The translations under genes were made by a program, and so were the position numbers. Shown in pieces: positions 2,118-51,058 of a stretch of DNA of 52,183 nucleotides. How positions within the stretch are numbered: position 1 is the stretch's first letter; each line of letters opens with the position of its first letter. Origin of the DNA: a virus. A model generated the notes under the pieces. The model had not been told where the DNA came from. It did not search any database and saw only the letters and a list, made by a program, of their open reading frames with translations. Location of the stretch: positions 1 to 52,183 of the IMG/VR virus record IMGVR_UViG_3300045988_175993. One strand, given 5' to 3'.

Positions 2118-2191
2118 TGGCTGGGATGGCGGGATTCGAACCCACTATATCGGAGTCAAAGTCCGGTGTGTTACCGTTACACTACATCCCA
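2118..2191 (-). tRNA. tRNA-Gln(UUG): tRNA-Gln (anticodon UUG), CCA encoded
   Basis: Hand-folded cloverleaf. Acceptor TGGGATG/CATCCCA; D arm GTGT-AACGGTA-ACAC; anticodon arm CCGGA-CTTTGAC-TCCGA (one C-A mismatch); variable loop TATA; T arm GTGGG-TTCGAAT-CCCGC; discriminator G followed by CCA. Confidence 0.85.
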
Positions 2192-3075: not shown

Positions 3076-4782
3076 TTAATGCGTACCCCAAGGTCCCCAA
3101 CCGATATCTACATCAAGAGGGACTCTGAGTTCTACACCAAAATCATCAAGAACTTTCGGATGAAGCATTATTCTACGTATAGTTTCATCAACATAATCCT
3201 TATCCTCTATATGGCATTCCCCAATGATAGAGTCATGAACAGTAGCTCCAATCCAAGCAATTCCTTTGAGTTCTTTGTTGATTTGAGTTACAGCTGAAAT
3301 AAGCAGATCAGAGCCTGAGCCTTGAACCGGAGTATTGATGGCTCTGCGAGCAGCACTTGCTCTTTCCCACTTATTATCCGAATAGATCAGAGGAAGTTTC
3401 CTAAATCTGCCAAACATATTGGATACTCCACCCTGCATCTCGCAAAGAAGTTCTTGCTCTGTATGCCAAGGAAGAAGACGATTATACTTGGCGAAGAACA
3501 GATTTCTGACGTGTTCTGCTTCTGTAGGTGTAAATGTTTGGCCATAACTGTTCATAGCGTATTCAACAAACTTTTTAGCTTGCATCCCATATAGAAAACC
3601 GAAATTAACAGCCTTTGCTTTGCCACGCTCCTCTTTTGTGGGTTCACGTCCACCAGTAAACAGCTTTGCTGTTTCGGTATGGATATCTCCTCCCTCTCGG
3701 TAGATTCGCAGCATAGTTTTATCCTGAGCATAATGAGCTGCTATTCGCAACTCGAGCTGTGAATAGTCTGCTTCAAATAGGATCATACCAGGAGCACCAG
3801 AGAACAATCCTCTTATGTCTTTAGTTCTTGGAACTTGCTGAAGATTCGGATTATTGCAGCTTGTACGTCCTGAAACAACATTGGTCAGATTAAAACTAGG
3901 ATGGATTCTACTTTCATAACAATCGTCCTTCCATCGGTTCAAGAACATCTTGTTTCGAGTGGCAACATCCTTGTACTGCATAAGCAATTTGGGAAGTTCA
4001 TATCCCTGCATAGCAAGCTTTTTCAGTACATCCGCAGAAGTAGAAGGAACACCCTTGGGAGTCTTTTTCAAAACCGGGAAATGTTCAATATCAAAGAATA
4101 CATGTGCCACTTGCGTTGAGCTATTCCAGTTGATATCATGATGTGCTTTAAGTTGTTTGAGGAGCTGCTTCTCTTCGGTGTTGTACCGTTTTTTGACTCC
4201 TTCAAGAGCATCAAGATCAAGGTACAGTCCATTCCTTTCAATATCTCTGTAAGCTCTGTATGCAGGACGAAGAAGGTCTTGATAGATCTTCAGCTGCTTA
4301 TTTGTCATTTGATCTGAGAAGTACTGAAACAGCTGCCATGTATACTTCACGTCACATCTGAGATAGGGAACAATGGTATCCTTATCGCCACTCAGCTTCT
4401 CTTTCTTTTTTATATCCCAGTCAGGAACACCCAAATAAGTTTGAGCCATCTTCTTCAGACCATGCTCTGCAACCAAATCAAACGCCGTACCCATCAGCAT
4501 AACATCCTCTGAGATGGGTATCTTCACCCCAAGATGATGCTCAAGAAACAAAGTATCAAATTTGCCATTCTGGAATACAACTTTTGCTTTTGCTTCCTTG
4601 ATGTGCTTCAAAACATTCAAGAACTTTTTCAAGTCCTTATTGGAAGTGTAGTCATAAGTCAGTATCTTGGGATTATCATCCTCAATAGTCTTTGCTAAAC
4701 CGACTCCGATCCAGGTGATTTTGTCAGTATATCGATTCAATCCCGTTGTTTCGATATCAATGGTTGCATACTTATATGCCAT
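3076..4782 (-). CDS. polA: Family-A DNA polymerase with 3'-5' exonuclease domain (no 5'-3' exonuclease domain)
   Basis: Exo motifs: ATIDIETTGL, VFQNGKFDTLF, YLRCDVKYTWQL. Pol motif A DYSQLELRIAAH; motif B RGKAKAVNFGFLYGM; motif C TVHDSII. Confidence 0.92.
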   Translation of the reverse strand: MAYKYATIDIETTGLNRYTDKITWIGVGLAKTIEDDNPKILTYDYTSNKDLKKFLNVLKHIKEAKAKVVFQNGKFDTLFLEHHLGVKIPISEDVMLMGTAFDLVAEHGLKKMAQTYLGVPDWDIKKKEKLSGDKDTIVPYLRCDVKYTWQLFQYFSDQMTNKQLKIYQDLLRPAYRAYRDIERNGLYLDLDALEGVKKRYNTEEKQLLKQLKAHHDINWNSSTQVAHVFFDIEHFPVLKKTPKGVPSTSADVLKKLAMQGYELPKLLMQYKDVATRNKMFLNRWKDDCYESRIHPSFNLTNVVSGRTSCNNPNLQQVPRTKDIRGLFSGAPGMILFEADYSQLELRIAAHYAQDKTMLRIYREGGDIHTETAKLFTGGREPTKEERGKAKAVNFGFLYGMQAKKFVEYAMNSYGQTFTPTEAEHVRNLFFAKYNRLLPWHTEQELLCEMQGGVSNMFGRFRKLPLIYSDNKWERASAARRAINTPVQGSGSDLLISAVTQINKELKGIAWIGATVHDSIIGECHIEDKDYVDETIRRIMLHPKVLDDFGVELRVPLDVDIGWGPWGTH

Positions 4783-5185: not shown

Positions 5186-5446
5186 TCATATCCCATATCT
5201 TTCCCTCAGCTTTGTTTGAGCTCTTTTGACTTCATCAATTGGTCTGTGCTGCTTAATCAGATCATCTATCTCAGAGCTGAATATTCCAATGTAATACTCA
5301 TGATTACAGTGAGAACACCGAAAATACTTGTAGTATGTGTGCTTATCCACGTGCTTTTGCTTTATCTTTATGTGGAACTTCTTTCCACAAAAGTTGCATA
5401 CAGGATCGCATACTGGCTTGGGTTTATTCTTCTGAGACAGGAGCAT
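5186..5446 (-). CDS. Small zinc-ribbon protein
   Basis: 86 aa with two Cys pairs (CDPVCNFCGKKFH ... CSHCNHEY). Overlaps the end of glyA. Confidence 0.6.
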   Translation of the reverse strand: MLLSQKNKPKPVCDPVCNFCGKKFHIKIKQKHVDKHTYYKYFRCSHCNHEYYIGIFSSEIDDLIKQHRPIDEVKRAQTKLRERYGI

Positions 5447-6620
5447 AATTTTTCACCATCCCTTGTATAATCTCATCGATCTTATGTGCAACAAAGACAA
5501 AGTCTTCTTCGACATATCCTCTAGTGGTCATAGCAGCTGTCCCTATTCTGAGACCGCTTGCTTGCATAGGACTACGAGTCTCATTGGGTACACAATTCTT
5601 GTTCAAAGTTATCTTGTGTTTATCTAGCTCATCTTGAACCATCTTTCCAGACAGCTGAGGATGGGTATGAGAAAGATCAATCAAGAAAAGATGATTGTCT
5701 GTTCCTCCGGTGATCACTTCATATCCCATGGATACAAATTCTTCTGCCATTGCTTTGCTATTCTTCACAACCTGGTGGATATAACGCCAATAGTCAAGAT
5801 TAAGAGCTTCTTCAGCACAAATAGCCTTTGCTGCAATTATATTCTCAAGTGGACCACCCTGAGTCCCGGGGAATACAGCTGAATCTACTTGTTTCTCATA
5901 CTGAGGCTTACAAAAGATCAATCCACCACGAGGACCACGCAGAGTCTTATGTGTAGTTGTTGTAACTACATCTGCTAAACCAAAAGGAGAAGGATGATCA
6001 TTAGCAACAACAAGACCAGCTATGTGAGCCATGTCAACCATGAATATGGGATTGTATCCTGGATTCCGATCTCGAACATTTTGAATGAGGGAATACATCT
6101 TTTCAAAATCTATTATGCGAGGATAAGCAGAAGCTCCTGCAAGGATCAAATTGGGACGGAACAGGGAAATTTTTCTCAGAAACTCATCATAGTTGATATA
6201 ACCCTTGGCATCTACACCATAGTGAATTACTTCAAACAGTTTGCCAGATATATTCACAGGAGATCCATGAGACAAGTGTCCTCCGCAGTTGAGGCTCATA
6301 GAAAGAACTTTATCACCAGGCTTGAGAAAAGCCATCATTGCAGCCAAATTTGCATTTGCTCCAGAATGAGGCTGGACATTAACATGATAGTTAGTCTTAA
6401 AGACCATTTTCCAGAGTTCTTGGCAATAGGATTCAAGCTCGTCAACAACCTCGCAACCACCATAATATCTATGGTATGGTTTACCCTCAGCATACTTATT
6501 TGTAAAGCAAGATCCCATTGCTTTTAAGACATTGCCACTGACAAAATTCTCACTTGCAATAAGCTCAATTGTATCTATCTGTCTTTTCTGTTCTTTTTCA
6601 ATAAAATCACGAGCCCTCAT
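5424..6620 (-). CDS. glyA: Serine hydroxymethyltransferase
   Basis: ELIASENFVS, NKYAEGKPYHRYYGGCE, and the PLP-lysine motif VVTTTTHKTLRGPRGG. At 398 aa it is full length. Confidence 0.93.
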   Translation of the reverse strand: MRARDFIEKEQKRQIDTIELIASENFVSGNVLKAMGSCFTNKYAEGKPYHRYYGGCEVVDELESYCQELWKMVFKTNYHVNVQPHSGANANLAAMMAFLKPGDKVLSMSLNCGGHLSHGSPVNISGKLFEVIHYGVDAKGYINYDEFLRKISLFRPNLILAGASAYPRIIDFEKMYSLIQNVRDRNPGYNPIFMVDMAHIAGLVVANDHPSPFGLADVVTTTTHKTLRGPRGGLIFCKPQYEKQVDSAVFPGTQGGPLENIIAAKAICAEEALNLDYWRYIHQVVKNSKAMAEEFVSMGYEVITGGTDNHLFLIDLSHTHPQLSGKMVQDELDKHKITLNKNCVPNETRSPMQASGLRIGTAAMTTRGYVEEDFVFVAHKIDEIIQGMVKNYAPVSEE

Positions 6621-7561: not shown

Positions 7562-9437
7562 CTCGGACTTCTTTGAACCCTTGAGCACGAATATTTCTCA
7601 TAAAAGCATGTTTTTTATGGCTTTCTCTGCCAGTATCAATACAGTATCTACAATAGGCTTCATATAGAGCGGTCTTTTCTGTAGATAGATTGTTCTCTAG
7701 CTTGCAGCATTTTGATAGAAATGCATGTATACTATCAGAATCCCTTCTCAAAGTCTCAACATACCTATCACTGGTACTAGTCCTCGGAATATCCTTAACA
7801 GGCAACAAGTGAAGAAGATATGGTATGATCTCTGTAACACTCTCTTCGCTGCATAAGTCATTGACATAGTCGTTGTTCAAGAAAAGCTCGGTGTTCATGA
7901 ACAAAATACGCATTCTTTTGTAGAAAGCATTTGATTTTTCTTCAAGCTGAAGCGGGAGCTGGTTGAAAGAAAATATCAGCTTACAGAACGGAGTGAAGAA
8001 GAATGGTTCCTTGCCTTTCCTCTCGTGCATGATTTGGTCACCACCAGTGATCTTCTTGAGATTCTCAATACTACTCAACGGAAGAGAGCTGTTATCTGCA
8101 CAAGAATTCAAAAGCCGATTATATAGCTGTGCCGGATAAAATCTCATATTCAGCTCATGCATGCTTAAAGAAGCCACATTTTGTTTTCCAACAAGAGTTT
8201 CAAAAAACCTTATCAAGACTGATTTACCTGTATTGGACTGGCCACACAAAATCATGAAAGTTTTCAAACCATAATCCAAGGTCAAACAATAAGCCATATA
8301 CTTGAGAAGCATCTTGACATCTTCATTAGGGAGACAAGTCTTCTTGAAAAACCCATAAAGCCTAGTCTCCTTAAAGGGCTTGTATTCCCCAACCTCATGG
8401 GGAATTTGAATTGTTTGAAGATACTTGCTATCATGAGGAATCAGTTCTCCTCTCTCAATATCCCAAACACCGTTCTGGAAATTGATAAGATTCTTGTCCC
8501 TATTCAACTCTGTAGGAGCTTTTCTCAACCGAGTATCATCACAAATCAGCCTGAAGCATTCCATGATGCGGTTTTGCGTTATGAGACCATCAACAACAAT
8601 CAAATCCTTGATAGTGTTTCTTACAGGACTACTAGCCTCAACATATACTCCATCCTTATACTGATAGCACTCTCCATCGAGAACAAAGATATCACCACGG
8701 TTGACAAAATATTCACAGATGGCTTTGTGATTTATATTAGTTGGTACACCCTTGCTATTGTAGATCAAATAGGGATTATCGAATTGCTGAGAAGCCTCAT
8801 ATTTCTTGGTGTTTTCAACAATCTTATCCAGCTCTCCTTGATCCATAGGCTGAGCAAAGATTATGTTATTGATTACATCAGCCATCTCTTCTATCTGCTC
8901 ATCAGAAGCTCCTCTGTTCTTATAAGCCATAAGATGAGCAAACAAAGTTGAATTTCTTCCATCCCCGTCTTTGAGACCAAGCAAACTCTCTTTGCGGTTG
9001 ACCATGGGAGTAAATTCAAAAGGCAGTTCAGCAATCTCTTTGCATCTATTGAATTTTCTTCCTTCAGATCCAAAGGGCAGAATTACATACCCTTTATTGG
9101 CACAACGAAAATCGCACTTAAGACCGCAAGGAAGAACCATGCCAACCTTCTGTGGGTACTCCTTATTGCATTTGAAATACAGATGAAGACCTTTTGGAGT
9201 CTGAGCTATCAAGGTTTTCAGCTTGAGTTTCTTAACAACCTCAATAGCTTCTTCTTTTCCCTCATCTATATCAACTACAATGTACCCTGATCTAACCCAC
9301 CAGCCGATTTGACCCCCGGAGAATACATGGGCATCAGCAGCCTGTTCTGAAACAATAGCTGTATCAAGCCGTTTTTTCCCCATGCATCTTACATAAGAGT
9401 CCTGTCCAACCAATGAGTTGAACTCGCTCAAATTCAT
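7506..9437 (-). CDS. Primase-helicase: N-terminal prim-pol domain plus D5_N/P4-family P-loop NTPase
   Basis: Prim-pol motifs: YIVVDIDEGKEE, TPKGLHLYFK, GYVILP. Walker A CGQSNTGKS. 643 aa. Confidence 0.88.
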   Translation of the reverse strand: MNLSEFNSLVGQDSYVRCMGKKRLDTAIVSEQAADAHVFSGGQIGWWVRSGYIVVDIDEGKEEAIEVVKKLKLKTLIAQTPKGLHLYFKCNKEYPQKVGMVLPCGLKCDFRCANKGYVILPFGSEGRKFNRCKEIAELPFEFTPMVNRKESLLGLKDGDGRNSTLFAHLMAYKNRGASDEQIEEMADVINNIIFAQPMDQGELDKIVENTKKYEASQQFDNPYLIYNSKGVPTNINHKAICEYFVNRGDIFVLDGECYQYKDGVYVEASSPVRNTIKDLIVVDGLITQNRIMECFRLICDDTRLRKAPTELNRDKNLINFQNGVWDIERGELIPHDSKYLQTIQIPHEVGEYKPFKETRLYGFFKKTCLPNEDVKMLLKYMAYCLTLDYGLKTFMILCGQSNTGKSVLIRFFETLVGKQNVASLSMHELNMRFYPAQLYNRLLNSCADNSSLPLSSIENLKKITGGDQIMHERKGKEPFFFTPFCKLIFSFNQLPLQLEEKSNAFYKRMRILFMNTELFLNNDYVNDLCSEESVTEIIPYLLHLLPVKDIPRTSTSDRYVETLRRDSDSIHAFLSKCCKLENNLSTEKTALYEAYCRYCIDTGRESHKKHAFMRNIRAQGFKEVRDGKTRDYLWSGIGLRKGR

Positions 9438-9440
9438 AGA

Positions 9441-9926
9441 TTATTCTCCTTGGGTTGAAGATTTACGATTGCTCCCGTCTGTACAAGATATGCAGGCTCC
9501 TCCAGCTCGCAAAGACTTAAAATCACCATAGTGATCGCATCCAACACAAGAACAGTGTTCCGTATCAGTAAAGGTAACTTTTCTATCCTCAAGGGTGATA
9601 TCTTGGCTTTCTGTTTTCTGAAGCCACCTATCCAAGCGCTCAACTTTGCTAGCTATCCTTGACTTGATATCAGAATCTGTAAGACCCATGATATGAACGA
9701 TATGGTCCAATACAATGAATACATCTGCAACCTCATCGAGAGCTTTGTTGTACAAACCTTTTACTGCTCGTTCTGAATCGGTATACCTTGGGTATTTGGC
9801 ACAAACAGCAGCAAGCTCACAAAGTTCTTCATTCGAAACAAGGATTTGAGCAGTATCGCCATACACATGGCGAGCTCTAGCTGTGACTTTGGCTTCTTCT
9901 TCGGTCAGGAATTTGGTGTAATTCAT
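9441..9926 (-). CDS. MazG-like all-alpha NTP pyrophosphohydrolase with Cys-rich C-terminal extension
   Basis: Metal-binding pattern SNEELCELAAVCAKY ... ALDEVADVFIVLDH (E..E / E..D). The tail is CSCVGCDHYGD...CISC. Confidence 0.7.
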   Translation of the reverse strand: MNYTKFLTEEEAKVTARARHVYGDTAQILVSNEELCELAAVCAKYPRYTDSERAVKGLYNKALDEVADVFIVLDHIVHIMGLTDSDIKSRIASKVERLDRWLQKTESQDITLEDRKVTFTDTEHCSCVGCDHYGDFKSLRAGGACISCTDGSNRKSSTQGE

Positions 9927-10405
9927 CTGTCTGTATTATCCTCCATCCAATTAGGTTCATACATCACATCAATGTTGTACAAATCAAATATCTCTTCAGT
10001 TGGACCGCTTATGCGAGCAGATCCTCCATATACAACCTTTGTGATTCCAGCAGATACAATTGCTCTAGCACAAGACTCACAAGGATATCTTGTTACATAA
10101 ATAGTAGCTCCATCCGTGGATATCCCTCTTTGAGCAGCTCCTGTAATAGCATCTATCTCACTGTGAATAGCTCTACAGTCCTCAGGATTTCTATGGGATT
10201 TACTGTCATTGCCATACTTCTCTATCCTCAAGCATTCCCTGTGCTTGCACAAGTCAGGCATAGCGCGGTTTGCTCCCAAACCAATCACAGTCCCGTCTTT
10301 AATGATTGCAGATCCTACAGAGACCTTCTTACAGCCACTGTGTTTCATTGCAAAATCATATGCGAGATCGAGAACTGTGAACCTGTTTTCTGTCCGTCCA
10401 GTCAT
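9923..10405 (-). CDS. dCMP/CMP deaminase (zinc-dependent)
   Basis: HSEIDAI (H-x-E) and YPCESCARAI (PC..C). Start moved to ATG 10405 (RBS GGAGGGG), giving an ATGA overlap with the upstream stop. Confidence 0.88.
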   Translation of the reverse strand: MTGRTENRFTVLDLAYDFAMKHSGCKKVSVGSAIIKDGTVIGLGANRAMPDLCKHRECLRIEKYGNDSKSHRNPEDCRAIHSEIDAITGAAQRGISTDGATIYVTRYPCESCARAIVSAGITKVVYGGSARISGPTEEIFDLYNIDVMYEPNWMEDNTDR

Positions 10406-11220
10406 TTTAACCCCTCCATGAATTCTTGAATTTCTTTCCAATCAAACTTGATACTCTCAACCCCTGAGCGGGTCATAGCAACCTTGATCAATCCAAGGTG
10501 AGTACAAGCACGTTGGAACTTTCGTACTCTGCGATGCTGTTTCTCTTGTATTGTTCCTCTTTCTGAGGCATTACAGCCCCCTTTACCAACCCCCATAGCT
10601 GTACAATCATACTGTATCTCAGTGGTCTTTACACACTCAAGACCGTATGTATAGCATTCAAGTTGAAGAAACAAGTCTTCATTCCCCACAAGCCTGCTAG
10701 TCTTATAATTCAACCCAGCTTCTACAATGGCTTTTACATTTATGCCCACAGCTTGTTGAAGCTGCGCTCGAGGACAAGAACCAAGGTCTGACTCTTTCAT
10801 AGACCAACTGAAAGGACGATATGAAGCTCCGAACATTGCCTCATCACCCCAAAGCATCTCCCAATACAGAAGAACATCGGTCCAATTCTGAGGCTCACCC
10901 ATGATTGTTCCAGAAGCTCTGACGAATTGCTTCTCCTCATCCCAAACAGAAAAGTCCAACCGACCGACATCATCATCTATCATGAATATCCGATCAATTC
11001 CTTTTGAATAAGCATAATTGACCATCTTCTGCCGAGTTTCTCCAATGTTGCGGACTTTTTTCAACTTCACTATATGTGTATCAGGTCTCTTCTTCAACCA
11101 AGCATAATCGCTTGCTTCTTCCTCTCTGACAAATACATATAGGGGAAACTCATACAAAACACTTCGCTTGAGGAAAGTTGCATTGGGTCTTTGATACGAA
11201 GGTACAAATACAGGTATCAT
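10402..11220 (-). CDS. GT-A-fold glycosyltransferase-like protein (candidate DNA-base glycosyltransferase)
   Basis: N-terminal IPVFVPSYQRP and a DxD motif in IFMIDDDVGR. It sits between a Pplase-like gene and the deaminase. The family assignment is tentative. Confidence 0.55.
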   Translation of the reverse strand: MIPVFVPSYQRPNATFLKRSVLYEFPLYVFVREEEASDYAWLKKRPDTHIVKLKKVRNIGETRQKMVNYAYSKGIDRIFMIDDDVGRLDFSVWDEEKQFVRASGTIMGEPQNWTDVLLYWEMLWGDEAMFGASYRPFSWSMKESDLGSCPRAQLQQAVGINVKAIVEAGLNYKTSRLVGNEDLFLQLECYTYGLECVKTTEIQYDCTAMGVGKGGCNASERGTIQEKQHRRVRKFQRACTHLGLIKVAMTRSGVESIKFDWKEIQEFMEGLK

Positions 11221-11307
11221 TCAATCTCCTCCATCTAAGAATTTTCCAAGCCAGTACAACAGCCACAAAAAAGCTACTATTATAATGAGATACCCTGCCA
11301 AAATCAA
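11221..11307 (-). CDS. Possible 28-aa transmembrane micro-protein (TTG start)
   Basis: GAGGAGG RBS lies 6 nt upstream of TTG. Translation (M)ILAGYLIIIVAFLWLLYWLGKFLDGGD. Its TGA abuts the ATG of the glycosyltransferase. Not in the ORF track because it is under 60 aa. Confidence 0.3.
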   Translation of the reverse strand: MILAGYLIIIVAFLWLLYWLGKFLDGGD

Positions 11308-11319
11308 CCTTGTACCTCC

Positions 11320-11682
11320 TCAGAACACAAACTTCTCTGTGACTTCCTCTACTCTGGCTTCGTATCTCCTTTGGAGGTACTCTACAGCTTGTATGTATCC
11401 TTCTTCGGAGAATTCAAACCTCTCACAACGAGTTCCGTTTATAGAAACTACTAGAGCTGGATTTGAAGAACAGTTGTATGTATATCCACGGTATACTGTG
11501 CCATCTGGATTGACCTTCTCCAATCGGTATGAACCTATTTGAAAGACGTTGAACTTTGTTACAGCATCATGGTCTTGGTATGCACGACCAGTGTATCGAT
11601 CGTATTTGGTAATAACATCCCATTCAATCGTGATGGGGATTTGGTTGTATTGCTCCCAAGGAGGGAATTTCGATTTTAACAT
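11320..11682 (-). CDS. Hypothetical protein (120 aa)
   Basis: Start set at ATG 11682 (RBS GGAAAGGG; 5 nt after the upstream stop) instead of track start 11775. No motif recognised. Confidence 0.7.
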   Translation of the reverse strand: MLKSKFPPWEQYNQIPITIEWDVITKYDRYTGRAYQDHDAVTKFNVFQIGSYRLEKVNPDGTVYRGYTYNCSSNPALVVSINGTRCERFEFSEEGYIQAVEYLQRRYEARVEEVTEKFVF

Positions 11683-11686
11683 GCAT

Positions 11687-12694
11687 TCAGCCCTTTCCAT
11701 TGTATTTCTTTCTTGGTCTACCTGTACCATCTTTAGCTCTGATGTATTTGGACAACTCACAGAAACAATTCTCAAGGCTCATTACATTGAAGCACTGATC
11801 GTACTCGGGAAGATCCCAGAATATCTCAGAACAATCCCAATCTTTGCCAAGGACTTCTTTGAAGAGCCTTTCTAGGTTATCTCTAACCCAAAAGATACAT
11901 TCCTCATAGCTCATCCCGTCTCTATCCTTGAACAGGTAATTCAACCCCATCTGACATCCAGGACCAGCAATAGTGAATTCATTCTCAGAGAACGGGAACT
12001 GCTTGATATAAGTCATATCGACAAATATTTGATAAGCCAAGAAATTCCCAAGTCCCATATAGCTTCGGAGTGAATCATATACGTCAGATTGCTTTCTAGC
12101 TGCCTTAATCTGACTCACGATATCCTCATCAAGAAGATGCCGTATAAAGTAGAGGATTCTCATCTCCATACTATTATCAGGAGTATCGTTGGGCAGATAC
12201 CACTTTAGTGCGCGTTTCAGACCTCCAGTGTTAAATGCACCAGTGAAGAAAATGCGATGAGGATCGTCTTTTAGAGCAGCTTCGAACAAAGATCTATACC
12301 ACTCAGGATTCCATCTCTCTTCAGACTCATAGAATGCAATAGGCATACCAATCAACTCTGAAGTCTCATGCTTATTATAGAGCCTGAATAGGATACAATT
12401 CATCAATTTGTCTTCATAGCAAAGAGCGGGATTGGTTGCTATGTTCTTAATAAGCCACTTGCTTTCTCGGTCATGCTCTCTACGGATATTGGTGAATCTG
12501 AAATTCAGCAATACATCGTCTTTAGTCCAGGGAGGATCTTTCTTGAGCACATCTTTCTTGATGTGAATACCATATCTTCGCTTGATGAATTGATACAAGT
12601 ATTTGAGATTTCTTTCATCAATTACTGGATGAGCTTTCTCAATCTTCTTTTGATTCACACCACAGAATTTGGTATCAGCCTTTTTAGTCTTCAT
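11687..12694 (-). CDS. aGPT-Pplase (alpha-glutamyl/putrescinyl thymine pyrophosphorylase) clade-3-like protein; the CDS is certain, the function tentative
   Basis: PPWTKDDVLLNFRFTNIRREHDRESKW and YMGLGNFLAYQIFVDMTY...AGPGCQMGL match what I recall of this HhH-glycosylase-fold family. No HMM was run. Confidence 0.5.
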   Translation of the reverse strand: MKTKKADTKFCGVNQKKIEKAHPVIDERNLKYLYQFIKRRYGIHIKKDVLKKDPPWTKDDVLLNFRFTNIRREHDRESKWLIKNIATNPALCYEDKLMNCILFRLYNKHETSELIGMPIAFYESEERWNPEWYRSLFEAALKDDPHRIFFTGAFNTGGLKRALKWYLPNDTPDNSMEMRILYFIRHLLDEDIVSQIKAARKQSDVYDSLRSYMGLGNFLAYQIFVDMTYIKQFPFSENEFTIAGPGCQMGLNYLFKDRDGMSYEECIFWVRDNLERLFKEVLGKDWDCSEIFWDLPEYDQCFNVMSLENCFCELSKYIRAKDGTGRPRKKYNGKG

Positions 12695-13278
12695 CTGGCA
12701 TTCTCCATAAGCTTTGATGCAATCATGTCCGCCTGATGAGTCCAGAGCACATTGGGAAAAGCTCGAATTGCTTCATCATACTCACCCCAAGCATCCGTTT
12801 CATAAGCCCCCATATGGAATCTGATACAAAGCCTTTCTTCTGTGGTAAGATACATGTAGTCTTCAATTTTCAAAACTGAATCCATTCCATGAATTTCTGA
12901 AAACTTGATCTGATCAACCTTATGGGTGTAACCATACTCAAGTTCTCCTGTCAAAGGATTCTTTTCTTGAAATGTCTGATAAGCCCCGATTTTGGTAACA
13001 TCATGAAGCATACCGATAATCAGAGGACTCGAGCTTCTGGTCCAAGTGCAGAATCCTGCCTGAGTAAACCATTCCAGTTGCTGGAACACGTTCCTCGAGT
13101 GATCATACAGTCCTCCATAGTAGTTGCAGTGATGCTTTGCCGCAGCCGGAGCTCTGAAGAAGTCCGTGGTACAAAGCCACTTAAAGGGGAATTCATCTTT
13201 TGAGATATTGTTGAGCCTCAGAAGTCTTTCCAGGTCTTCCTGCCTCGCTTCCTCAGAATCAAATAAGGTTTTCAGCAT
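12691..13278 (-). CDS. HD-domain phosphohydrolase
   Basis: GGLYDHS, MLHDVTK and HQADMIAS give the H...HD...D metal ligands. It is the first gene behind the promoter at 13312-13340. Confidence 0.8.
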   Translation of the reverse strand: MLKTLFDSEEARQEDLERLLRLNNISKDEFPFKWLCTTDFFRAPAAAKHHCNYYGGLYDHSRNVFQQLEWFTQAGFCTWTRSSSPLIIGMLHDVTKIGAYQTFQEKNPLTGELEYGYTHKVDQIKFSEIHGMDSVLKIEDYMYLTTEERLCIRFHMGAYETDAWGEYDEAIRAFPNVLWTHQADMIASKLMENAR

Positions 13279-13311: not shown

Positions 13312-13340
13312 ATTATATATGAATTTTGCTCAGAAATAAA
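13312..13340 (-). promoter_or_regulatory. Sigma-A-like promoter (-35 TTTATT, 17 bp, -10 TATAAT)
   Basis: Minus strand reads CTTTATTTCTGAGCAAAATTCATATATAAT. Its architecture matches the TTTACT-N17-TAGAAT family. Confidence 0.55.
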
Positions 13341-13349
13341 GACGAAAAT

Positions 13350-13411
13350 AGGATGAGAAAATCTTCAAATCTGACGATATTTACATCAAACAGTTGGGAT
13401 TTTCTCACCCT
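13350..13411 (-). terminator. Rho-independent terminator candidate
   Basis: 14-bp stem aggatgagaaaatc/gattttctcaccct with 1 mismatch. On the minus strand it is followed by ATTTTCGTCTTTATTT. It lies between the stop at 13431 and the next promoter. Confidence 0.55.
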
Positions 13412-13430
13412 ATCATACCCTCTCATATTT

Positions 13431-14075
13431 TTACGAAATGCTTCGTCTATTCATAACGGATTTCCCATCTGTCTTTCCAGCAAAGAACGCATCAACTTGA
13501 TTGACATCCATCTTCATGGTCGCTTTTGATTCTTTCAGCACAGGGAACTTCTCTGCAAATGCAGTCTTAACATCCTCAGGAACAACTACAGCAAGAGCAA
13601 CGGTCTGAGCATCAAGAGCTTCTTTCAGACCATGCAGGAAACCTGAAGCATATGCATTGTATATGAGAGAAGCTCCAGCCTGAGCCGAAGACAGACCGTG
13701 TTCACGGCAGACCTTTCTCATCCCCTGTTCCATCACCTTGTATGCAAACTCGAGGGCAGATTTAGCTGAGATAGCATTAACACTGTGACCAAAGAAGTGG
13801 ATTCTTCCATAGGTGATGATTGCCTTGCATCCAAACGAATCTGCAATGATAGAAGACATCCGTTTTGAGCGGGGATCCACTTTCACCTTGCACATCTCAA
13901 GATCATAGGTGATCTTTTCACCAGAAGGAAGAGCTCCCTGTTCGATATTGTACTTGGCCATCAACCTCTGAGCCAAAAGAAGAGCTTGTTTCGCTTCCGC
14001 TTCAGAAGCTCCGTTTGTTGTAGTCTTATCCAGCAGATGCTGAATCTTTTCGATGATCTTATCCGTATCAGCCAT
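13431..14075 (-). CDS. DUF2786-like protein
   Basis: Start set at ATG 14075 (MADTDKIIEKIQHLLDKTTTNGASEAEAKQALLLAQRLMAKY), which gives the typical DUF2786 N-terminus. RBS gagggg. Confidence 0.65.
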   Translation of the reverse strand: MADTDKIIEKIQHLLDKTTTNGASEAEAKQALLLAQRLMAKYNIEQGALPSGEKITYDLEMCKVKVDPRSKRMSSIIADSFGCKAIITYGRIHFFGHSVNAISAKSALEFAYKVMEQGMRKVCREHGLSSAQAGASLIYNAYASGFLHGLKEALDAQTVALAVVVPEDVKTAFAEKFPVLKESKATMKMDVNQVDAFFAGKTDGKSVMNRRSIS

Positions 14076-14088
14076 TGTGTTGTACCCC

Positions 14089-14355
14089 TCAAATTTCAGA
14101 TAGTGTATCAGCCCATTGGGCAGCGTCATAACCTATGCTCTCGATCTCGCTGAGCACATCGTTCAGGGTATCAAGGTACTCCTGCATCTGTTCGCCGTGC
14201 TCACTGTCCCGGATCGACTCTGGAAGGTTGTCGTAGGATTCCTGCTCGTCATCTATAACTTGCTGCAGATCCCCAAGGATCTCGTCCTTGAGTTCTTCCA
14301 GATTCTGTAACTTTTTAGTGATCTCCTTGAGCATTCTTCTCTTGATCTTGTTCAT
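14089..14355 (-). CDS. Hypothetical acidic coiled-coil protein
   Basis: Start set at ATG 14355 (RBS aaggagga). Contains LPESIRDSEHGEQMQEYL. Confidence 0.7.
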   Translation of the reverse strand: MNKIKRRMLKEITKKLQNLEELKDEILGDLQQVIDDEQESYDNLPESIRDSEHGEQMQEYLDTLNDVLSEIESIGYDAAQWADTLSEI

Positions 14356-16190: not shown

Positions 16191-16610
16191 TTAATTTTCC
16201 TCCTTGTGGTCAAATATATGCCAAAGATTATAACCTTTCCGCTCAAGAATCTCCAAACAATCATCCAAATAGAAGATATCTTGTTCAGGATAGACAGTGC
16301 CTGAAAGCTTCTGATTCAGCTCTGTAAGATTTGGAGCATTGGTTTCATCATAGACGATCTTGGGAAGATCCTTGCCTCGATAACCTATATCGAACCACTG
16401 AAGATCAACTTTGTATTTCCGGAACATCATCTCCCGCATCACTTTAAGATGATAGCAGAACAGCCACTCTCTAGGGTGATCAAATACATAGCCAACTACG
16501 GGATCAGGGGTGTTCCAGTTTCCTTTTCTGAGGGCGCAGCACTCACGGTGTGCGCCCAGCAGGTAACGTTTGGGAAGATATGGAATCAAGGCTTCATGCC
16601 AGAGCTTCAT
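16191..16610 (-). CDS. TIGR02328-like protein (pyrimidine-dimer DNA glycosylase/DenV-related fold)
   Basis: The N-terminus MKLWHEALIPYLPKRYLLGAHRECCALRKGNW is the hallmark I recall for this family (MRLWH..LIP.LP...LL.q.RECCa.R). Confidence 0.6.
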   Translation of the reverse strand: MKLWHEALIPYLPKRYLLGAHRECCALRKGNWNTPDPVVGYVFDHPREWLFCYHLKVMREMMFRKYKVDLQWFDIGYRGKDLPKIVYDETNAPNLTELNQKLSGTVYPEQDIFYLDDCLEILERKGYNLWHIFDHKEEN

Positions 16611-30743: not shown

Positions 30744-32885
30744 ATGAGTTTTAATTTGGGTACAGCAGTTGGTTATCTTATGCTTGACACTTCTGGTTTT
30801 GAATCAGGATTTAAGAGAGCAGAAACACAGCTGCAAACATTCACAAATAAGTCCAAATCTTGGGATAAAAGATTTGCAGGTCTTTCATCAGGATTGATTA
30901 CTCTGGGAAGCAATCTTACCAAAAGCGTTACTCTTCCTCTTGTTGGTTTAGGAACAGCAGCAGCCAAGTCTGCTATTGATTTTGAATCTGCTTTCGCAGG
31001 TGTCCGTAAAACAGTTGATGCAACTGAAGAAGAATACTCTGAGCTTGAAAAGAGTATTATAGAGATGAGTAACAGAATGCCGCAATCCGCTGCAGACATA
31101 GCAAGTGTTATGGAAATTGCAGGACAACTCGGTATTCGAGGACGTGACAATCTTCTGAGTTTCACTGAAACAATGATTCGTTTGGGTGATAGCACGAACT
31201 TGAGCTCTGAAGAAGCTGCTACTGCTATTGCACGAATCATGAATATCATGGGCACTTCTACCGAGGATGTTGGAAGATTTGGCTCCACTATTGTTGACCT
31301 AGGCAACAATTTTGCAACAACCGAATCCGAAATTACTGAAATGGCAAATAGACTTGCCGCTGGTGGTAAGCTAGCTGGACTGACTGAGCCACAAATTCTT
31401 GCACTTGCTACTGCAATGTCTTCTGTTGGTATAAATGCTGAAGCTGGTGGCACAGCTATGACTCAAACATTCAATGCTATTGAGAAAGCTGTAGCAAATG
31501 GTGGAGAAAAACTTCAAGGGTTTGCTGATGTGGCTGGAATGACCTCAGAAGAGTTTGCTGCAGCATGGGAAAATGATCCTATTACAGCAATCCAAGCCTT
31601 TATACAAGGTTTGGGAAAGCTGGAAGAGCAAGGTGGATCCGCTGTGCTAGCTCTTGATGATCTTGGTCTTTCTGGTATTCGTCAATCAGATATGCTTAAG
31701 AGTTTGTCTCAATCAGGCGATTTGCTTACAGATGCTTTGGAGACAGCAAATGGAGCTTGGGAGGAGAATGATGCTTTAACACAAGAATCAGAAACTCGAT
31801 ATGAGACACTTGCATCTAAGATACAAATCCTCTGGAATAATGTGAAGAATCTTGCCAAATCTTTTGGCGATCTATTGTTGCCTGTTATTGAAGATACTAT
31901 TGACTTTATAAAGCGTTTAATAGAATGGCTAGATAACATGCCGGATAGCTTAAAAAATACAATAGTCAAAATAGCAGAATTTGTTGCCATATTTGGTCCC
32001 GTTCTAGTTGTCATTGGAAAAGTTGCTGGTGCTATAAAGAAGCTCATTGGTATCTTTACTGGAGTCACAAGTCCTATTGGTTTGATCATAACTATCATAG
32101 CTCTTCTGGTGGCGGCTTTCATATACCTTTGGAATACATCTGAAGACTTCAGGAATTTCTGGATAAACCTTTGGGAAGCAATCAAAAATGCCGCTAAAGC
32201 AGCAGCTGATTGGGTTGTACAAGCAGTCAAAGATGTGGTACAATTCTTCAAAAATTTACCACAAACAATAGCTGATATTTGGAACAATATAAAGACAACA
32301 GTCTCAGAAAAGATTCAAGAGATCATAACTGCAATTGCTGAATGGGCTGTTAATCTTTACAATAGCGCTGTCAATGCTTGGAATCAGTTTTGGGATGGTG
32401 CAAAATCCATCTGGGAACAAATTGTTACATGGATATCCGAATCCTGGAATTCTGTTGTGGACACAGTAACGAATTTCGGTCAAAACCTCTATGATGCAGG
32501 AGCTTCAATATTCTCTTCTTTTTGGGATGGGTTGGTATCTGTTTGGGAAAGCATAGCCAGCTGGGTCTCTGAAAAAGTATCCTGGATTGCTAACGCTTTA
32601 AGTGGTGCTTTGGGAAGTGTGAGTTCGCATACCCATTCTTCTGGTTCTTATGCTACAGGCATAGATTACATACCCTCAGATCGGTATGTAAAAGTCCATG
32701 AGGGCGAGGCAATTTTGTCGAAGGAACAAAACAAAAACAGGAATAGTTCTCCCAGTGGTTCTTTCACAGTGCCAATAGTGCTGGATGTAACCAATAAGAT
32801 AGATGGAATGACTCTGGCACGTAATCAGTATAAGTACAATTTGATTGTCGATAATAATCATGGTCCTAAACTGATCAAGACATAA
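30744..32885 (+). CDS. Tape measure protein (TP901-type core)
   Basis: 713 aa. AFAGVRKTVDATEEEYSELEKSIIEMS...AADIASVMEIAGQLG, a central hydrophobic segment, and W-rich C-terminal repeats. Confidence 0.88.
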   Translation: MSFNLGTAVGYLMLDTSGFESGFKRAETQLQTFTNKSKSWDKRFAGLSSGLITLGSNLTKSVTLPLVGLGTAAAKSAIDFESAFAGVRKTVDATEEEYSELEKSIIEMSNRMPQSAADIASVMEIAGQLGIRGRDNLLSFTETMIRLGDSTNLSSEEAATAIARIMNIMGTSTEDVGRFGSTIVDLGNNFATTESEITEMANRLAAGGKLAGLTEPQILALATAMSSVGINAEAGGTAMTQTFNAIEKAVANGGEKLQGFADVAGMTSEEFAAAWENDPITAIQAFIQGLGKLEEQGGSAVLALDDLGLSGIRQSDMLKSLSQSGDLLTDALETANGAWEENDALTQESETRYETLASKIQILWNNVKNLAKSFGDLLLPVIEDTIDFIKRLIEWLDNMPDSLKNTIVKIAEFVAIFGPVLVVIGKVAGAIKKLIGIFTGVTSPIGLIITIIALLVAAFIYLWNTSEDFRNFWINLWEAIKNAAKAAADWVVQAVKDVVQFFKNLPQTIADIWNNIKTTVSEKIQEIITAIAEWAVNLYNSAVNAWNQFWDGAKSIWEQIVTWISESWNSVVDTVTNFGQNLYDAGASIFSSFWDGLVSVWESIASWVSEKVSWIANALSGALGSVSSHTHSSGSYATGIDYIPSDRYVKVHEGEAILSKEQNKNRNSSPSGSFTVPIVLDVTNKIDGMTLARNQYKYNLIVDNNHGPKLIKT

Positions 32886-32895
32886 GGAGTGTATT

Positions 32896-33279
32896 ATGGG
32901 AAAGATCATCAAAATCAATGACATTGATTTTTCAGACATCTTTGAAGAAAAGAGTTACAGTGTTACTGAAACTAAAGTGCTTGGTTCCAATGGCGGTACT
33001 GCTCTTTCTGGAAAGACCTGGGAAGATTTGATTGCCTACAAAGACAAAGTTGATTTTCCTCTTGATCCACTGTCTGAAGAAGAACTTTCTGCTCTTATGA
33101 AATGTTTGAGAACTTCAAAATATGCTCCTTATGTCAAACTGTACTACTTTTCACCGAACTATGGGGAGTACCGAACGGCAGAATTCATTCGGGATGAGAT
33201 AACTCATACTCAAATGTTTATTTCCAACTCTGGGGTGGCATACTATAACGAGAATACCCTATCCATGACGGAGGTCTGA
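32896..33279 (+). CDS. Distal tail protein candidate (short)
   Basis: Called from its position after the tape measure. 127 aa. Confidence 0.4.
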   Translation: MGKIIKINDIDFSDIFEEKSYSVTETKVLGSNGGTALSGKTWEDLIAYKDKVDFPLDPLSEEELSALMKCLRTSKYAPYVKLYYFSPNYGEYRTAEFIRDEITHTQMFISNSGVAYYNENTLSMTEV

Positions 33280-33281
33280 TT

Positions 33282-35462: not shown

Positions 35463-35478
35463 GAAAGGAGGATTATAG

Positions 35479-48259: not shown

Positions 48260-48260
48260 A

Positions 48261-48873: not shown

Positions 48874-48876
48874 ATT

Positions 48877-51042: not shown

Positions 51043-51058
51043 AGACATCTCCTCCAAA

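Follow-up and report, generated by a model that had tools for sequence, protein, structure and literature searches.

A probable upstream half of a split locus for decorated hydroxymethyl-pyrimidines in a circular phage genome

Organization of the locus

The window, i.e., the whole stretch of DNA analysed here (52,183 nt; IMG/VR record IMGVR_UViG_3300045988_175993), is a complete circular genome of ~52 kb whose first 119 nt are identical to its last 119 nt, and is that of a gut-type phage of the Bacillota-infecting type. Because the window is circular, both of its modification loci lie on one leftward gene array; all features described below are on the minus strand. The region at positions 9441–13278 contains seven tightly coupled ORFs, all located as first reported, in the order HD-domain phosphohydrolase, 335-aa aGPT-Pplase protein (Pplase1), 120-aa ORF, 28-aa ORF, TAGT-family glycosyltransferase (TAGT), dCMP deaminase and MazG-like protein. 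As the preliminary description had proposed, these genes have overlapping or abutting ends, with junctions of −4 nt (HD/Pplase1), +4 nt (Pplase1/120-aa ORF), +12 nt (120-aa/28-aa ORFs), 0 nt (28-aa ORF/TAGT), −4 nt (TAGT/deaminase, an ATGA overlap that assumes a deaminase start at ATG 10405 and not at TTG 10441) and −4 nt (deaminase/MazG). They do not form the self-contained operon that had been envisaged: a primase-helicase gene begins 3 nt past the MazG-like gene and the gene run extends beyond 9441, so this position is not the operon end.

Upstream of the HD gene lies a 152-nt gap containing a hairpin, then a U-tract, plus a TATAAT sequence. The hairpin and U-rich tract (13341–13414) resemble a terminator, which ends the upstream DUF2786/DUF7168 gene; the RNAfold energy for 13340–13415 is −30.3 kcal/mol, with UUUUCGUCUUUAUUU 3′ of the stem. 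The long loop and AT-rich stem explain why the consensus scan missed this hairpin. A candidate sigma-70-type promoter (13312–13340), read from the sequence, consists of a weak −35 element (TTTATT, 3/6 matched), a 17-nt spacer and a perfect −10 element (TATAAT, 13312–13317), and was likewise uncalled by the consensus scanner. The terminator and promoter previously placed before the HD gene correspond to these terminator-like and candidate promoter sequences, neither of which is called by the scanner.

Three of the seven genes encode putative nucleotide-pool enzymes. The HD-domain metal-dependent phosphohydrolase (195 aa; 12691–13278) matches the PHROG phosphohydrolase families phrog_28876 (1.8e-21) and phrog_5889 (1.4e-27), carries the HH..HD..H..D motif (H49-H50, H91-D92, H155, D162) and is conserved among relatives with 42–80% identity; it has no match in Pfam (E≤0.01), NCBIfam or PDB sequences. 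It is predicted to hydrolyse a canonical pyrimidine dNMP or dNTP. The dCMP deaminase (9923–10405; 160 aa from ATG 10405, the ORF reaching to TTG 10441) matches PF00383 (2.8e-18, 66 bits) and phrog_174 (1.1e-33), has the motifs HSE93 and PCESC120, and was found in each of the 42 syntenic relatives surveyed. The MazG-like all-alpha NTP pyrophosphohydrolase (161 aa; 9441–9926) matches phrog_2245 (NTP-pyrophosphohydrolase; 5.9e-11) and has the EExxE/ExxD motifs (EELCE33, EVAD65) and a C-terminal CxxC..CxxC tail kept in relatives. The window protein has no Pfam match at E≤0.01; its orthologue in the related locus L004 gives a weak MazG-like match. Such a pool-editing triad is ordinary among hydroxymethyl-pyrimidine phages.

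Pplase1, the glycosyltransferase and the small ORFs

Pplase1 (11687–12694) was previously assigned to the aGPT-Pplase superfamily, which is borne out by its match to Pfam PF18723 HMUDK_hel (E 6.1e-65, 219.8 bits); the motif originally quoted corresponds to residues 54–80. The clade was misjudged: the protein belongs to clade 1 (phage ViI gp160 type) and not to clade 3, according to the GenBank naming of the ViI orthologue (38.5% identity). Its identity to orthologues from hmU phages is 38–40%. Pplase1 is all-helical (AF2 pLDDT 88), and no PDB structure matches its AF2 model, solved clade 2 enzymes included. Residues C312-E313, inside the motif E308-N-x-x-C-E, are superfamily-invariant, and this pair and several Arg, Asp and Asn residues are invariant across homologues just 25–40% identical. 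Clade 2 enzymes have a catalytic Cys with a nearby Glu (PMC8989533, PMC13458397), a parallel that counts in favour of the pathway proposed below. Pplase1 is probably an enzyme of the Cys/Glu kind whose targets are 5-substituted pyrimidines in DNA.

The 272-aa TAGT (10402–11220) matches PF20691 as its sole Pfam family (43 bits; cut-off 27.5), with no GT2 match in the Pfam search, and phrog_842, a beta-glucosyl-HMC-alpha-glucosyltransferase family. Its AF2 model (pLDDT 93) is nearest to TAGT proteins in BFVD (TM 0.7–0.97), one of which is a beta-glucosyl-HMC-alpha-glucosyltransferase, whereas the nearest PDB GT-A structures reach a TM of only ~0.5. The model has no evident signal peptide or membrane segment. 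The invariant residues R11, D82–84 (DDD) and E181-D182 correspond to the R...DDD...ED motif of phage GT-A DNA glycosyltransferases (bioRxiv 10.1101/2023.12.21.572611), and the TAGT-family members that have been characterised use hmC or glucosyl-hmC as substrate (PMC13216743). The earlier call of a GT-A-type enzyme is therefore upheld by Pfam and BFVD, which group it with phage DNA glycosyltransferases and not with cell-wall GT2 enzymes. The designation of a DNA-modification locus is likewise supported.

The 120-aa ORF (11320–11682; ATG at 11682) has no match in Pfam, PHROG or NCBIfam, and its only homologues are in L003, the closest relative (71%), and one protein among 1.84 billion representatives; by sequence comparison, it is a lineage-restricted orphan. 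The 28-aa hydrophobic ORF (11221–11307; TTG start, GAGGAGG Shine-Dalgarno) is doubtful as a real gene: it has no homologue in any related locus fetched, and the 93-nt region 11222–11314 is absent or unaligned in L003.

Across relatives, the HD, Pplase1, deaminase and MazG genes belong to the core set. TAGT occupies the slot adjacent to Pplase1 in 13 of 42 related loci and is absent there from the other 29, and the Pplase1–TAGT adjacency is confined to one syntenic family; some relatives have instead a distant, paralogous TAGT-like gene directly after the DNA kinase. TAGT is a tailoring module that can be swapped or left out, and not an obligate Pplase partner.

The partner locus and comparison with known systems

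The partner locus includes a divergent ADDT-like protein (aGPT-Pplase clade 2, amino acid:DNA transferase; 50107–51057) with a weak PF18724 match (4.5e-7; 30.3 bits, cut-off 26.2) and an invariant C242 within E238-S-N-L-C. The idea that it and Pplase1 are paralogues fits the published superfamily classification and the common E-x-x-x-C motif, but a profile comparison of the two found no sequence relation. Next to it are a P-loop kinase of the 5-hmdU-DNA-kinase family (49517–50110; PF18748 HMUDK_HMUD1, 1e-21), kept in relatives with 58–64% identity; an FkbM-type methyltransferase (48877–49527; PF05050, 4.5e-10) in a variable slot, occupied in L018 and L019 by a distant TAGT-like glycosyltransferase; and a dNMP kinase (48385–48873; Thymidylate_kin and dNK matches). 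A thymidylate-synthase (TS) homologue (47561–48280; PF00303) has MilA CMP hydroxymethylase as its top PDB match (4e-36). Its residues D143, C146, T147, M165, D169 and D177 (E. coli ThyA numbering; diagnostic positions from PMC13326640) are the same as in T4-like dCMP hydroxymethylase, whereas ViI-like and PaMx11-like enzymes, of the dUMP-hydroxymethylase signature, have N147/N165/N177; by these signature residues alone, the protein is of the dCMP-hydroxymethylase type. Serine hydroxymethyltransferase (SHMT; 5424–6620; PF00464, 4.2e-137) would recharge methylene-THF for the hydroxymethylase. The presence of SHMT without a DHFR-family match among the ORFs scanned would fit a hydroxymethylase, which returns THF. 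The hydroxymethylase signature, HMUDK-type kinase and ADDT-like gene bear out the co-occurrence of hmC-type and ViI/phiW-14-type elements noted in the preliminary description. Region 9441–13278 is probably the upstream half of a split two-locus system for decorated hydroxymethyl-pyrimidines.

The T-even hmC pathway consists of dCTPase gp56, dCMP hydroxymethylase gp42, dNMP kinase gp1, deaminase cd and DNA glucosyltransferases, and the TAGT founder is the T2/T6 beta-glucosyl-HMC-alpha-glucosyltransferase. Like T-even phages, 170-kb myoviruses, the 52-kb window phage of Bacillota-phage type has the hydroxymethylase signature residues, an NTPase, a dNMP kinase, a dCMP deaminase and a TAGT-family enzyme. 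Unlike them, it has no alpha- or beta-GT (GT-B) among the ORFs scanned, TAGT being apparently solitary, and adds an HD hydrolase, SHMT, an HMUDK-type kinase, an ADDT-like protein and a clade 1 Pplase, the last three of which T-even phages lack.

In thymidine-hypermodification phages (ViI, M6/YuA, PaMx11, phiW-14, SP10 and Acinetobacter phage 15599), a dUMP hydroxymethylase, dTTPase/dUTPase and dCMP deaminase occur with 5-HMUDK, AADT/Pplase2 and often a clade 1 Pplase. The window shares with them the HMUDK-family kinase, ADDT-like protein, clade 1 Pplase, dCMP deaminase and MazG-type NTPase, and its genes are split over two loci as in ViI. Unlike in those phages, the hydroxymethylase is of the cytosine type (D177/T147/M165 versus N177/N147), the ADDT-like protein is barely at the Pfam cut-off, Pplase1 is not beside the kinase, and TAGT and the FkbM methyltransferase stand in place of PLP, radical-SAM or flavin tailoring enzymes, none of which was found among the ORFs scanned.

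The GT-A fold, the R...DDD...ED motif and the association with a ThyS homologue and dCMP deaminase are shared with the TET/5mYOX- and ThyS-associated pathways of a metavirome survey; unlike the TET/5mYOX pathways, the window has no 5mYOX or C5-methyltransferase among the ORFs scanned, and the survey mentions no kinase or aGPT-Pplase partner, whereas the window has both (Pyle et al., bioRxiv 10.1101/2023.12.21.572611). Microbacterium phages Luna18 (Neferthenavirus) and Guetzie (Kojivirus), for which no paper on DNA modification was found in the literature searched, also have a D177-type TS, HMUDK_hel and MazG, all in one early-gene module. Their hosts are high-GC actinobacteria and identity to the window proteins is only 25–33%. 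Guetzie, unlike the window, pairs HMUDK_hel with a Ploopntkinase3 kinase. Luna18, an independent lineage, has a TAGT-family enzyme too, and no detectable dCMP deaminase, HMUDK or ADDT-like gene; HMUDK_hel and TAGT proteins therefore do occur where only hmC is predicted.

Proposed pathway and alternatives

The best reading, to which we give a probability of about 0.5, is that pool editing would be followed by post-replicative sugar transfer to hydroxymethyl-pyrimidines, 5hmC being likelier than 5hmU. Going by family membership, before replication the MazG-like NTPase and HD protein would destroy the competing canonical pyrimidine nucleotide and the deaminase would re-balance the pyrimidine pool; the TS homologue, fed by the phage SHMT, would make 5-hm-dCMP, which the dNMP kinase would pass on and the phage PolA incorporate. 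After replication, TAGT would move sugar from a nucleotide-sugar to DNA hydroxymethyl groups, most likely 5hmC, and Pplase1, the HMUDK-type kinase and the ADDT-like protein might work on a further fraction of hydroxymethyl bases. The outcome may be two different adducts or a single one built in several steps, as the preliminary description suggested. In favour of this reading stand the family assignments, the circular genome that puts both loci on one gene array, the dCMP-hydroxymethylase signature, SHMT without a DHFR-family match among the ORFs scanned, the Pfam and structural placement of TAGT, the core and accessory gene pattern and the parallel gene set of Luna18. Several observations run against this reading: the ADDT-like match is weak, Pplase1 lacks a PDB match and shows no profile similarity to the ADDT-like protein, Pplase1–TAGT adjacency is limited to one syntenic family, 29 of 42 relatives lack an adjacent TAGT, and MazG, HD and deaminase equal the classical hmU-phage triad of dTTPase, dTMPase and dCMP deaminase (PMC8989533). 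Against 5hmC in particular, all HMUDK/AADT systems studied experimentally act on 5hmU (PMC8989533, PMC13458397), and the universal deaminase would suit hm-dCMP to hm-dUMP conversion.

It is possible, if only tentatively so, that such deamination is the main route: 5hm-dCMP would become 5hm-dUMP and 5hmU would replace T in DNA, with MazG and HD as dTTPase/dUTPase and dTMPase, the kinase, ADDT-like protein and Pplase1 carrying out standard thymidine hypermodification, and TAGT glucosylating leftover 5hmU to a base-J-like nucleotide. The clear HMUDK_HMUD1 assignment of the kinase, the similarity of Pplase1 to hmU-phage orthologues, the deaminase in every relative, a triad like the hmU-phage pool enzymes (PMC8989533, PMC13458397) and the structural resemblance of phage GT-A enzymes to the 5hmU-acting trypanosome base-J glucosyltransferase (bioRxiv 10.1101/2023.12.21.572611) all point this way. 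The route requires a deaminase that accepts 5hm-dCMP efficiently, and a D177-type enzyme occurs in no known hmU phage, those checked having N177; in addition, Luna18 combines a D177 enzyme, HMUDK_hel and TAGT without a deaminase, and characterised TAGT members use hmC or glucosyl-hmC (PMC13216743).

That Pplase1 is no enzyme and instead assists the P-loop kinase by binding DNA or flipping bases, its adjacency to TAGT being a gene-order accident, seems rather unlikely. Its invariant Cys-Glu pair and Arg/Asp/Asn residues look like an active site, the kinase gene of the window neighbours the ADDT-like gene at a distance of 11.5 kb from Pplase1, and HMUDK_hel of Luna18 occurs without a detectable HMUDK-type kinase. 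Nevertheless, the Pfam name is 'helical domain of the 5-hmdU DNA kinase', SP10 gp186 joins a Pplase1-type domain and the kinase in one protein (PMC5889632), in Guetzie and Lucjan HMUDK_hel adjoins a P-loop kinase, phage M6 has a second aGPT-Pplase paralogue, gp55, that in-vitro glycinylation did not require (PMC8989533), and Pplase1 mostly occurs without an adjacent TAGT. A non-DNA target of the glycosyltransferase (wall teichoic acid, surface glycan or protein), in a locus merely of nucleotide metabolism, is very improbable. The top solved structures are GT-A enzymes for teichoic acid (RmlT) and collagen, and ~65% of the GT contigs in a metavirome survey have no base-modification gene next to the GT (bioRxiv 10.1101/2023.12.21.572611), but the Pfam match above cut-off to TAGT and not GT2, the far closer BFVD TAGT models, the translational coupling to the deaminase gene and position after Pplase1, the paralogue directly after the DNA kinase in relatives, and the apparent lack of a signal peptide or membrane segment all argue for DNA.

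Under the preferred reading of sugar transfer to hydroxymethyl-pyrimidines, most likely 5hmC, a TS of the dCMP-hydroxymethylase type would operate alongside HMUDK-kinase and Pplase genes. The literature searched yielded no published description of this pairing or of the gene combination of the two loci.

Gene organization of the locus and its predicted pool enzymes

Seven ORFs on the minus strand fill positions 9441–13278, and their junctions overlap or nearly abut. In order of transcription, they encode a predicted HD phosphohydrolase (HD; 12691–13278), a 335-residue protein (Pplase1; 11687–12694), a 120-residue orphan (11320–11682), a 28-residue ORF (11221–11307), a 272-residue glycosyltransferase (GT; 10402–11220), a deaminase (9923–10405) and a MazG-like protein (9441–9926). 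The HD/Pplase1 junction is an overlap of 4 nt (−4), followed by intervals of +4 nt (Pplase1/120-residue ORF), +12 nt (120-residue/28-residue ORFs) and 0 (28-residue ORF/GT), and by two further −4 junctions, of which GT/deaminase is an ATGA overlap provided that the deaminase starts at ATG 10405 and the other joins the deaminase to MazG. The MazG end at 9441 had been taken as the end of this run, but the primase-helicase gene starts 3 nt past the MazG stop codon, and the array continues through primase-helicase and then SHMT (serine hydroxymethyltransferase) and PolA. Because the 119 nt at positions 1–119 recur unchanged at 52065–52183, the window represents an entire circular assembly of ~52,064 bp, in which the two modification loci that the preliminary description called first (47561–51057, minus strand; hereafter the partner locus) and second lie ~11.5 kb apart in one continuous leftward gene array.

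The 152-nt gap upstream of HD contains a hairpin of −30 kcal/mol with a U-tract and then TTTATT-17-TATAAT. A terminator and a promoter had been proposed here; the hairpin is upheld by folding, whereas a consensus promoter/terminator scanner called neither the hairpin nor TTTATT-17-TATAAT, so both the putative terminator and the putative promoter are plausible only. Just upstream of HD lies a gene for a DUF2786+DUF7168 protein (13431–14129, minus strand), which occurs also in relatives (L016 and L017, 6894–7628; L018, 61–711) and in the unrelated phage Guetzie (L015, 3056–3784), two genes downstream of HMUDK_hel; this recurrence may be coincidence or may mark an unrecognised component of the system. 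The early region also encodes a T4 endonuclease V-type pyrimidine-dimer DNA glycosylase (Pyr_excise, E 3e-16; 16191–16610, minus strand), and a single tRNA-Gln(UUG) gene (2118–2191, minus strand) is located between the PolA and PD-(D/E)XK nuclease genes.

The deaminase matches PF00383 at 66.1 bits, and its zinc motifs (H93-S-E and P120-C-E-S-C) are those of a standard dCMP deaminase. The predicted identities of HD and MazG are carried by PHROG profiles (1e-21 to 1e-27 for HD; phrog_2245 at 5.9e-11 for MazG) and by metal-binding motifs, namely H49/H50, H91-D92, H155 and D162 in HD, and E33-E-L-C-E and E65-V-A-D in MazG. HD had no sequence match in Pfam, NCBIfam or the PDB, and the MazG-like protein gave no Pfam match at E ≤ 0.01, with a weak PF12643 match (0.0029) for its orthologue in one relative (L004). 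No meaningful PDB sequence match was obtained for HD, MazG, Pplase1 or the ADDT-like protein of the partner locus, and NCBIfam added nothing for HD, Pplase1, GT, MazG, the kinase or the ADDT-like protein. The Cys-rich C-terminus of the MazG-like protein (residues ~116–161; 9441–9580, minus strand; C..C125, CVGC127-130 and CISC145-148) looks like a zinc ribbon, and its conservation in many relatives indicates that it is a family feature rather than an artefact.

The 120-residue orphan could be placed in no Pfam, PHROG or NCBIfam family, and its homologues are confined to the closest relative and one protein cluster (a single real match among 1.84 billion representatives). Despite a strong Shine-Dalgarno sequence, the 28-residue ORF is doubtful as a gene, being without homologues and lying in a 93-nt region that the closest relative lacks.

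The glycosyltransferase and the clade 1 Pplase

The only Pfam family matched by GT is TAGT, the TET-associated/beta-glucosyl-HMC-alpha-glucosyltransferase family (PF20691; 43.0 bits, cut-off 27.5; E 6.6e-11; residues 2–214), and the PHROG that it matches (phrog_842; 1.6e-11) is named for the T2/T6 beta-glucosyl-HMC-alpha-glucosyltransferase. An AF2 model (pLDDT 93) has the alternating beta/alpha architecture of the GT-A fold. The motif R...DDD...ED(Y/F) is shared by the GT-A DNA glycosyltransferases of phages, enzymes similar to the base-J glucosyltransferase (bioRxiv 10.1101/2023.12.21.572611). R11, D82-D83-D84 and E181-D182-L183 are invariant among 24 GT homologues, so that the window GT fits the R...DDD...ED motif with Leu, not Tyr or Phe, at the third position of the last element. 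When the model was compared with BFVD, it matched TAGT-domain proteins (E 1e-10 to 1e-43; TM 0.64–0.97), including the beta-glucosyl-HMC-alpha-glucosyltransferase of Klebsiella phage PKO111, whereas its best PDB matches were cellular GT-A enzymes of loose similarity (E ~1e-6; TM 0.45–0.56). Judged by its model, GT thus has its nearest structural kin among the DNA glycosyltransferases of phages, with cellular GT2 and cell-wall enzymes more distant. The assignments in Pfam, PHROGs and BFVD, together with the motifs, set GT apart from the cell-wall GT2 enzymes, in agreement with the earlier proposal of a DNA-type enzyme; GT is a TAGT-family enzyme, and is predicted to transfer sugar to a hydroxymethyl-pyrimidine in DNA or to the sugar that it carries.

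Pplase1 matches PF18723 HMUDK_hel at 219.8 bits (E 6.1e-65) over residues 30–321 of 335, and is 38.5% identical over its full length to the phage ViI (Vi01) orthologue, which GenBank records MT499896 and OP610151 label alpha-glutamyl/putrescinyl thymine pyrophosphorylase clade 1. Its earlier description as Pplase-like is therefore well founded in the PF18723 match and the ViI orthology; its placement in clade 3 is to be replaced by clade 1, as PF18723 is the sole profile match and the orthologues are named clade 1 in GenBank. The Pfam name HMUDK_hel derives from SP10 gp186, a kinase–Pplase fusion (PMC5889632, Table 3). In the window, Pplase1 is neither fused nor adjacent to a P-loop kinase: its neighbours are HD and the orphan ORF followed by GT, and on the circular map ~11.5 kb separates Pplase1 from the HMUDK gene. 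Elsewhere the usual neighbour is a P-loop kinase (Guetzie, Lucjan) or, in ~25 Ackermannviridae loci, a MazG-like gene. In these ViI-like genomes, the gene for the MazG-like pyrophosphatase directly precedes, on its upstream side, that for the clade 1 Pplase (IMG/VR contigs L070–L099, ~8970–11140; L014, 3061–5206). Two phage families that are unrelated to each other thus have the clade 1 Pplase gene beside those of nucleotide-pool enzymes.

Residues invariant in Pplase1 and its homologues (25–40% identical) include R72, D75, R104, N107, D226, N238, GPG244-246 and C312-E313. In the clade 2 enzyme 15599 Pplase2, the catalytic Cys lies in E222-T223-x-x-C226 (PMC13458397). Pplase1 C312 lies within E308-N-x-x-C, and C242 of the ADDT-like protein within E238-S-x-x-C, a likeness of motif alone, outside any alignment or superposition; this is suggestive of a thiol-based enzyme. 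A PDB sequence search with Pplase1 returned no match to the solved clade 2 enzymes, and a Foldseek comparison of its confident model with the PDB gave nothing below E 0.5, so that it confirmed neither the published HhH-glycosylase-like fold nor a likeness to those clade 2 enzymes. Pfam gave no PF18724 ADDT match to Pplase1, and hhalign detected no relation between its family and the ADDT-like protein of the window (probability 0.65%). The second aGPT-Pplase paralogue of phage M6, gp55, is dispensable for glycinylation in vitro (PMC8989533), and no function was found assigned to a clade 1 Pplase in the literature searched.

The hydroxymethylase type and the base that would be modified

The partner locus encodes the ADDT-like protein (PF18724; weak, 30.3 bits; cut-off 26.2), an HMUDK_HMUD1 kinase (1e-21), an FkbM methyltransferase (48877–49527, minus strand), a dNMP kinase and a thymidylate-synthase (TS) homologue (47561–48280). 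The best solved relative of the TS homologue is MilA, a CMP hydroxymethylase. Its residues D143, C146, T147, M165, D169 and D177 (E. coli ThyA numbering) are the same as in T4-like dCMP hydroxymethylase, whereas the ViI-like and PaMx11-like enzymes, groups experimentally shown to make hmU, have D143, N147, N165 and N177. Of these positions, Asp177 is diagnostic for cytosine specificity and Asp rather than Leu at 143 for a hydroxymethyl product, and retention of Asp169 speaks against a 5-hydroxy-dCMP synthase (PMC13326640, section 28). The TS homologue thus bears the T4-type dCMP hydroxymethylase signature, which predicts that activity. D177 was found in the window and in all family members checked, and N177 in large ViI/M6-like phages with Pplase1, kinase and ADDT; the N177 dUMP hydroxymethylase of the canonical 5-HMUDK thymidine pathway is not what the window carries. 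Among the window ORFs scanned, none matched a DHFR family, and SHMT without such a match fits a hydroxymethylase, which would release THF.

The SHMT gene is full-length and lies between primase and PolA (5424–6620, minus strand). At that position the gene is absent from relatives L016 and L017, which have a FolD-like gene (THF_DHG_CYH_C) at another site (3495–4367 and 3953–4624, respectively), suggesting that family members use different folate-recharging genes. The nearest phage-database homologue of the window TS gene (57% identity), in Agathobaculum phage AB434P2 (L009, OP172633; 3838–4500), is annotated as a deoxyuridylate hydroxymethyltransferase, yet reads D143/T147/M165/D177; the annotation is probably wrong on substrate. 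AB434P2 is also the nearest cultured match for this gene, and gut Clostridia are candidate hosts of the phage family.

These features can be combined in a pathway to modified cytosine, for which we estimate a probability of about one half as a whole. MazG and HD would deplete one canonical pyrimidine nucleotide, the deaminase would re-balance the pyrimidine pool, and the D177 enzyme, SHMT and dNMP kinase would supply 5hm-dCTP for the phage PolA. GT would then glycosylate 5hmC after replication, and the set of kinase, ADDT-like protein and Pplase1 would modify further sites. As HMUDK, ADDT and deaminase genes are present, an hmU phage was the first assumption, and was revised after inspection of the TS signature residues. 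The main rival, which we regard as less likely, is an hmU route in which the deaminase would turn 5hm-dCMP into 5hm-dUMP, followed by standard hmU chemistry, with GT making a base-J-like nucleotide. It is favoured by universal conservation of the deaminase, by the correspondence of MazG, HD and deaminase as a triad to the hmU phages and by a kinase that is clearly an HMUDK member; the TS signature and the precedents of the TAGT family favour hmC. So does the cultured Microbacterium phage Luna18 (L008, ON208831), where a D177-type TS, HMUDK_hel (E 4e-31), a TAGT-family GT and MazG form one module (30868–36388) in which dCMP deaminase, HMUDK and ADDT are not detectable. 5hmC and 5hmU could also both be present in the DNA.

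The gene association seen in the window thus recurs in Luna18, which belongs to an independent lineage. Guetzie (L015, OR253907; 1352–8764), also a cultured Microbacterium phage, carries a D177 TS, MazG and HMUDK_hel paired with a Ploopntkinase3 kinase. Nothing on DNA modification in Microbacterium phages was found in the literature searched. To our knowledge, the kinase/AADT-like/clade 1 Pplase machinery is so far known only from thymidine hypermodification, and no report of kinase/AADT chemistry on cytosine was found in the literature searched. That this machinery works on 5-hydroxymethylcytosine rather than 5hmU in the metagenomic family and in Luna18/Guetzie-type phages, with the clade 1 Pplase a real enzyme having its own group-transfer or reduction reaction, is a speculative and rather improbable extension of the hmC pathway. 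If true, it would define a new class of hypermodified cytosine, amino-acid- or amine-linked, which in TAGT carriers would also be glycosylated and perhaps O-methylated by FkbM.

Conserved core and exchangeable genes in the phage family

The locus had no megablast match among 50,697 phage records, so the phage has no annotated close relative, and none in culture; metagenomic contigs of 40–55 kb carry many homologues of its proteins, in >100 protein clusters. In relatives with Pplase1 of 42–96% identity, HD, Pplase1, deaminase and MazG are retained in order ahead of primase. The partner locus was accessible in three relatives (L018–L020), all of which keep the ADDT-like gene, kinase and D177 TS, and two of which retain the dNMP kinase. 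TAGT stands between Pplase1 and deaminase in 13 of the 42 IMG/VR loci with Pplase1-to-deaminase synteny; the other 29 have nothing there or small unrelated ORFs. A distant TAGT-like gene (26–33% identity; Pfam TAGT at 26.8 bits in L018) occurs in the other locus in L018, L019 and IMG/VR loci L040, L066, L068 and L081, directly after the kinase wherever a kinase was detected, which is the FkbM position of the window. The family therefore combines a fixed core with two tailoring slots of variable content, and TAGT is an accessory gene within it. The overlap of Pplase1 and TAGT in diverged relatives had been considered as the mark of an obligate pair, an idea that was dropped because many relatives have Pplase1 without adjacent TAGT. 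Whatever its insertion site, GT would be a functional partner of the kinase, transferase and Pplase machinery.

The slot between kinase and dNMP kinase holds FkbM in the window (48877–49527), a TAGT-like gene in L018 (14052–14888) and L019 (12989–13747), and DUF1599 in L020 (7905–8213). In L019, a Spo0A_C protein (sporulation regulator DNA-binding; 1712–2239) is encoded between Pplase1 and deaminase, in the place of TAGT. As speculation, the FkbM enzyme might O-methylate a DNA-linked sugar or adduct.

All the parts are individually of known kinds, and contigs with GT-A, ThyS and dCMP deaminase have been noted in a metavirome survey (bioRxiv 10.1101/2023.12.21.572611). Neither the combination of a cytosine-type hydroxymethylase with HMUDK kinase, AADT-like protein and clade 1 Pplase nor a swappable TAGT/methyltransferase tailoring slot in such a system was found in the literature searched. 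The co-occurrence of T4-like and ViI/phiW-14-like elements that the preliminary description had pointed out is borne out by the D177 TS and TAGT alongside HMUDK kinase, ADDT-like protein and Pplase1 in one small genome. Resting wholly on sequence inference, the case is that of a real, well-conserved system, which could reveal new base chemistry and the function of the clade 1 Pplase.

Hypermodification determines whether phage DNA can be cut by restriction enzymes, CRISPR and the engineering tools of phage therapy, and has been a source of useful enzymes. The locus and its partner unite two pathways that have been studied separately, T4-like hmC synthesis with sugar transfer and ViI/phiW-14-like kinase-plus-transferase chemistry, in a genome that is small and has many relatives in metagenome assemblies. 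With its fixed core and two slots in which glycosyltransferases, a methyltransferase and unknown genes replace one another, the family resembles a natural combinatorial library, and would offer a tractable route to the role of the clade 1 Pplase, to whether kinase/transferase chemistry reaches cytosine, and to sugar-bearing bases in gut phages.
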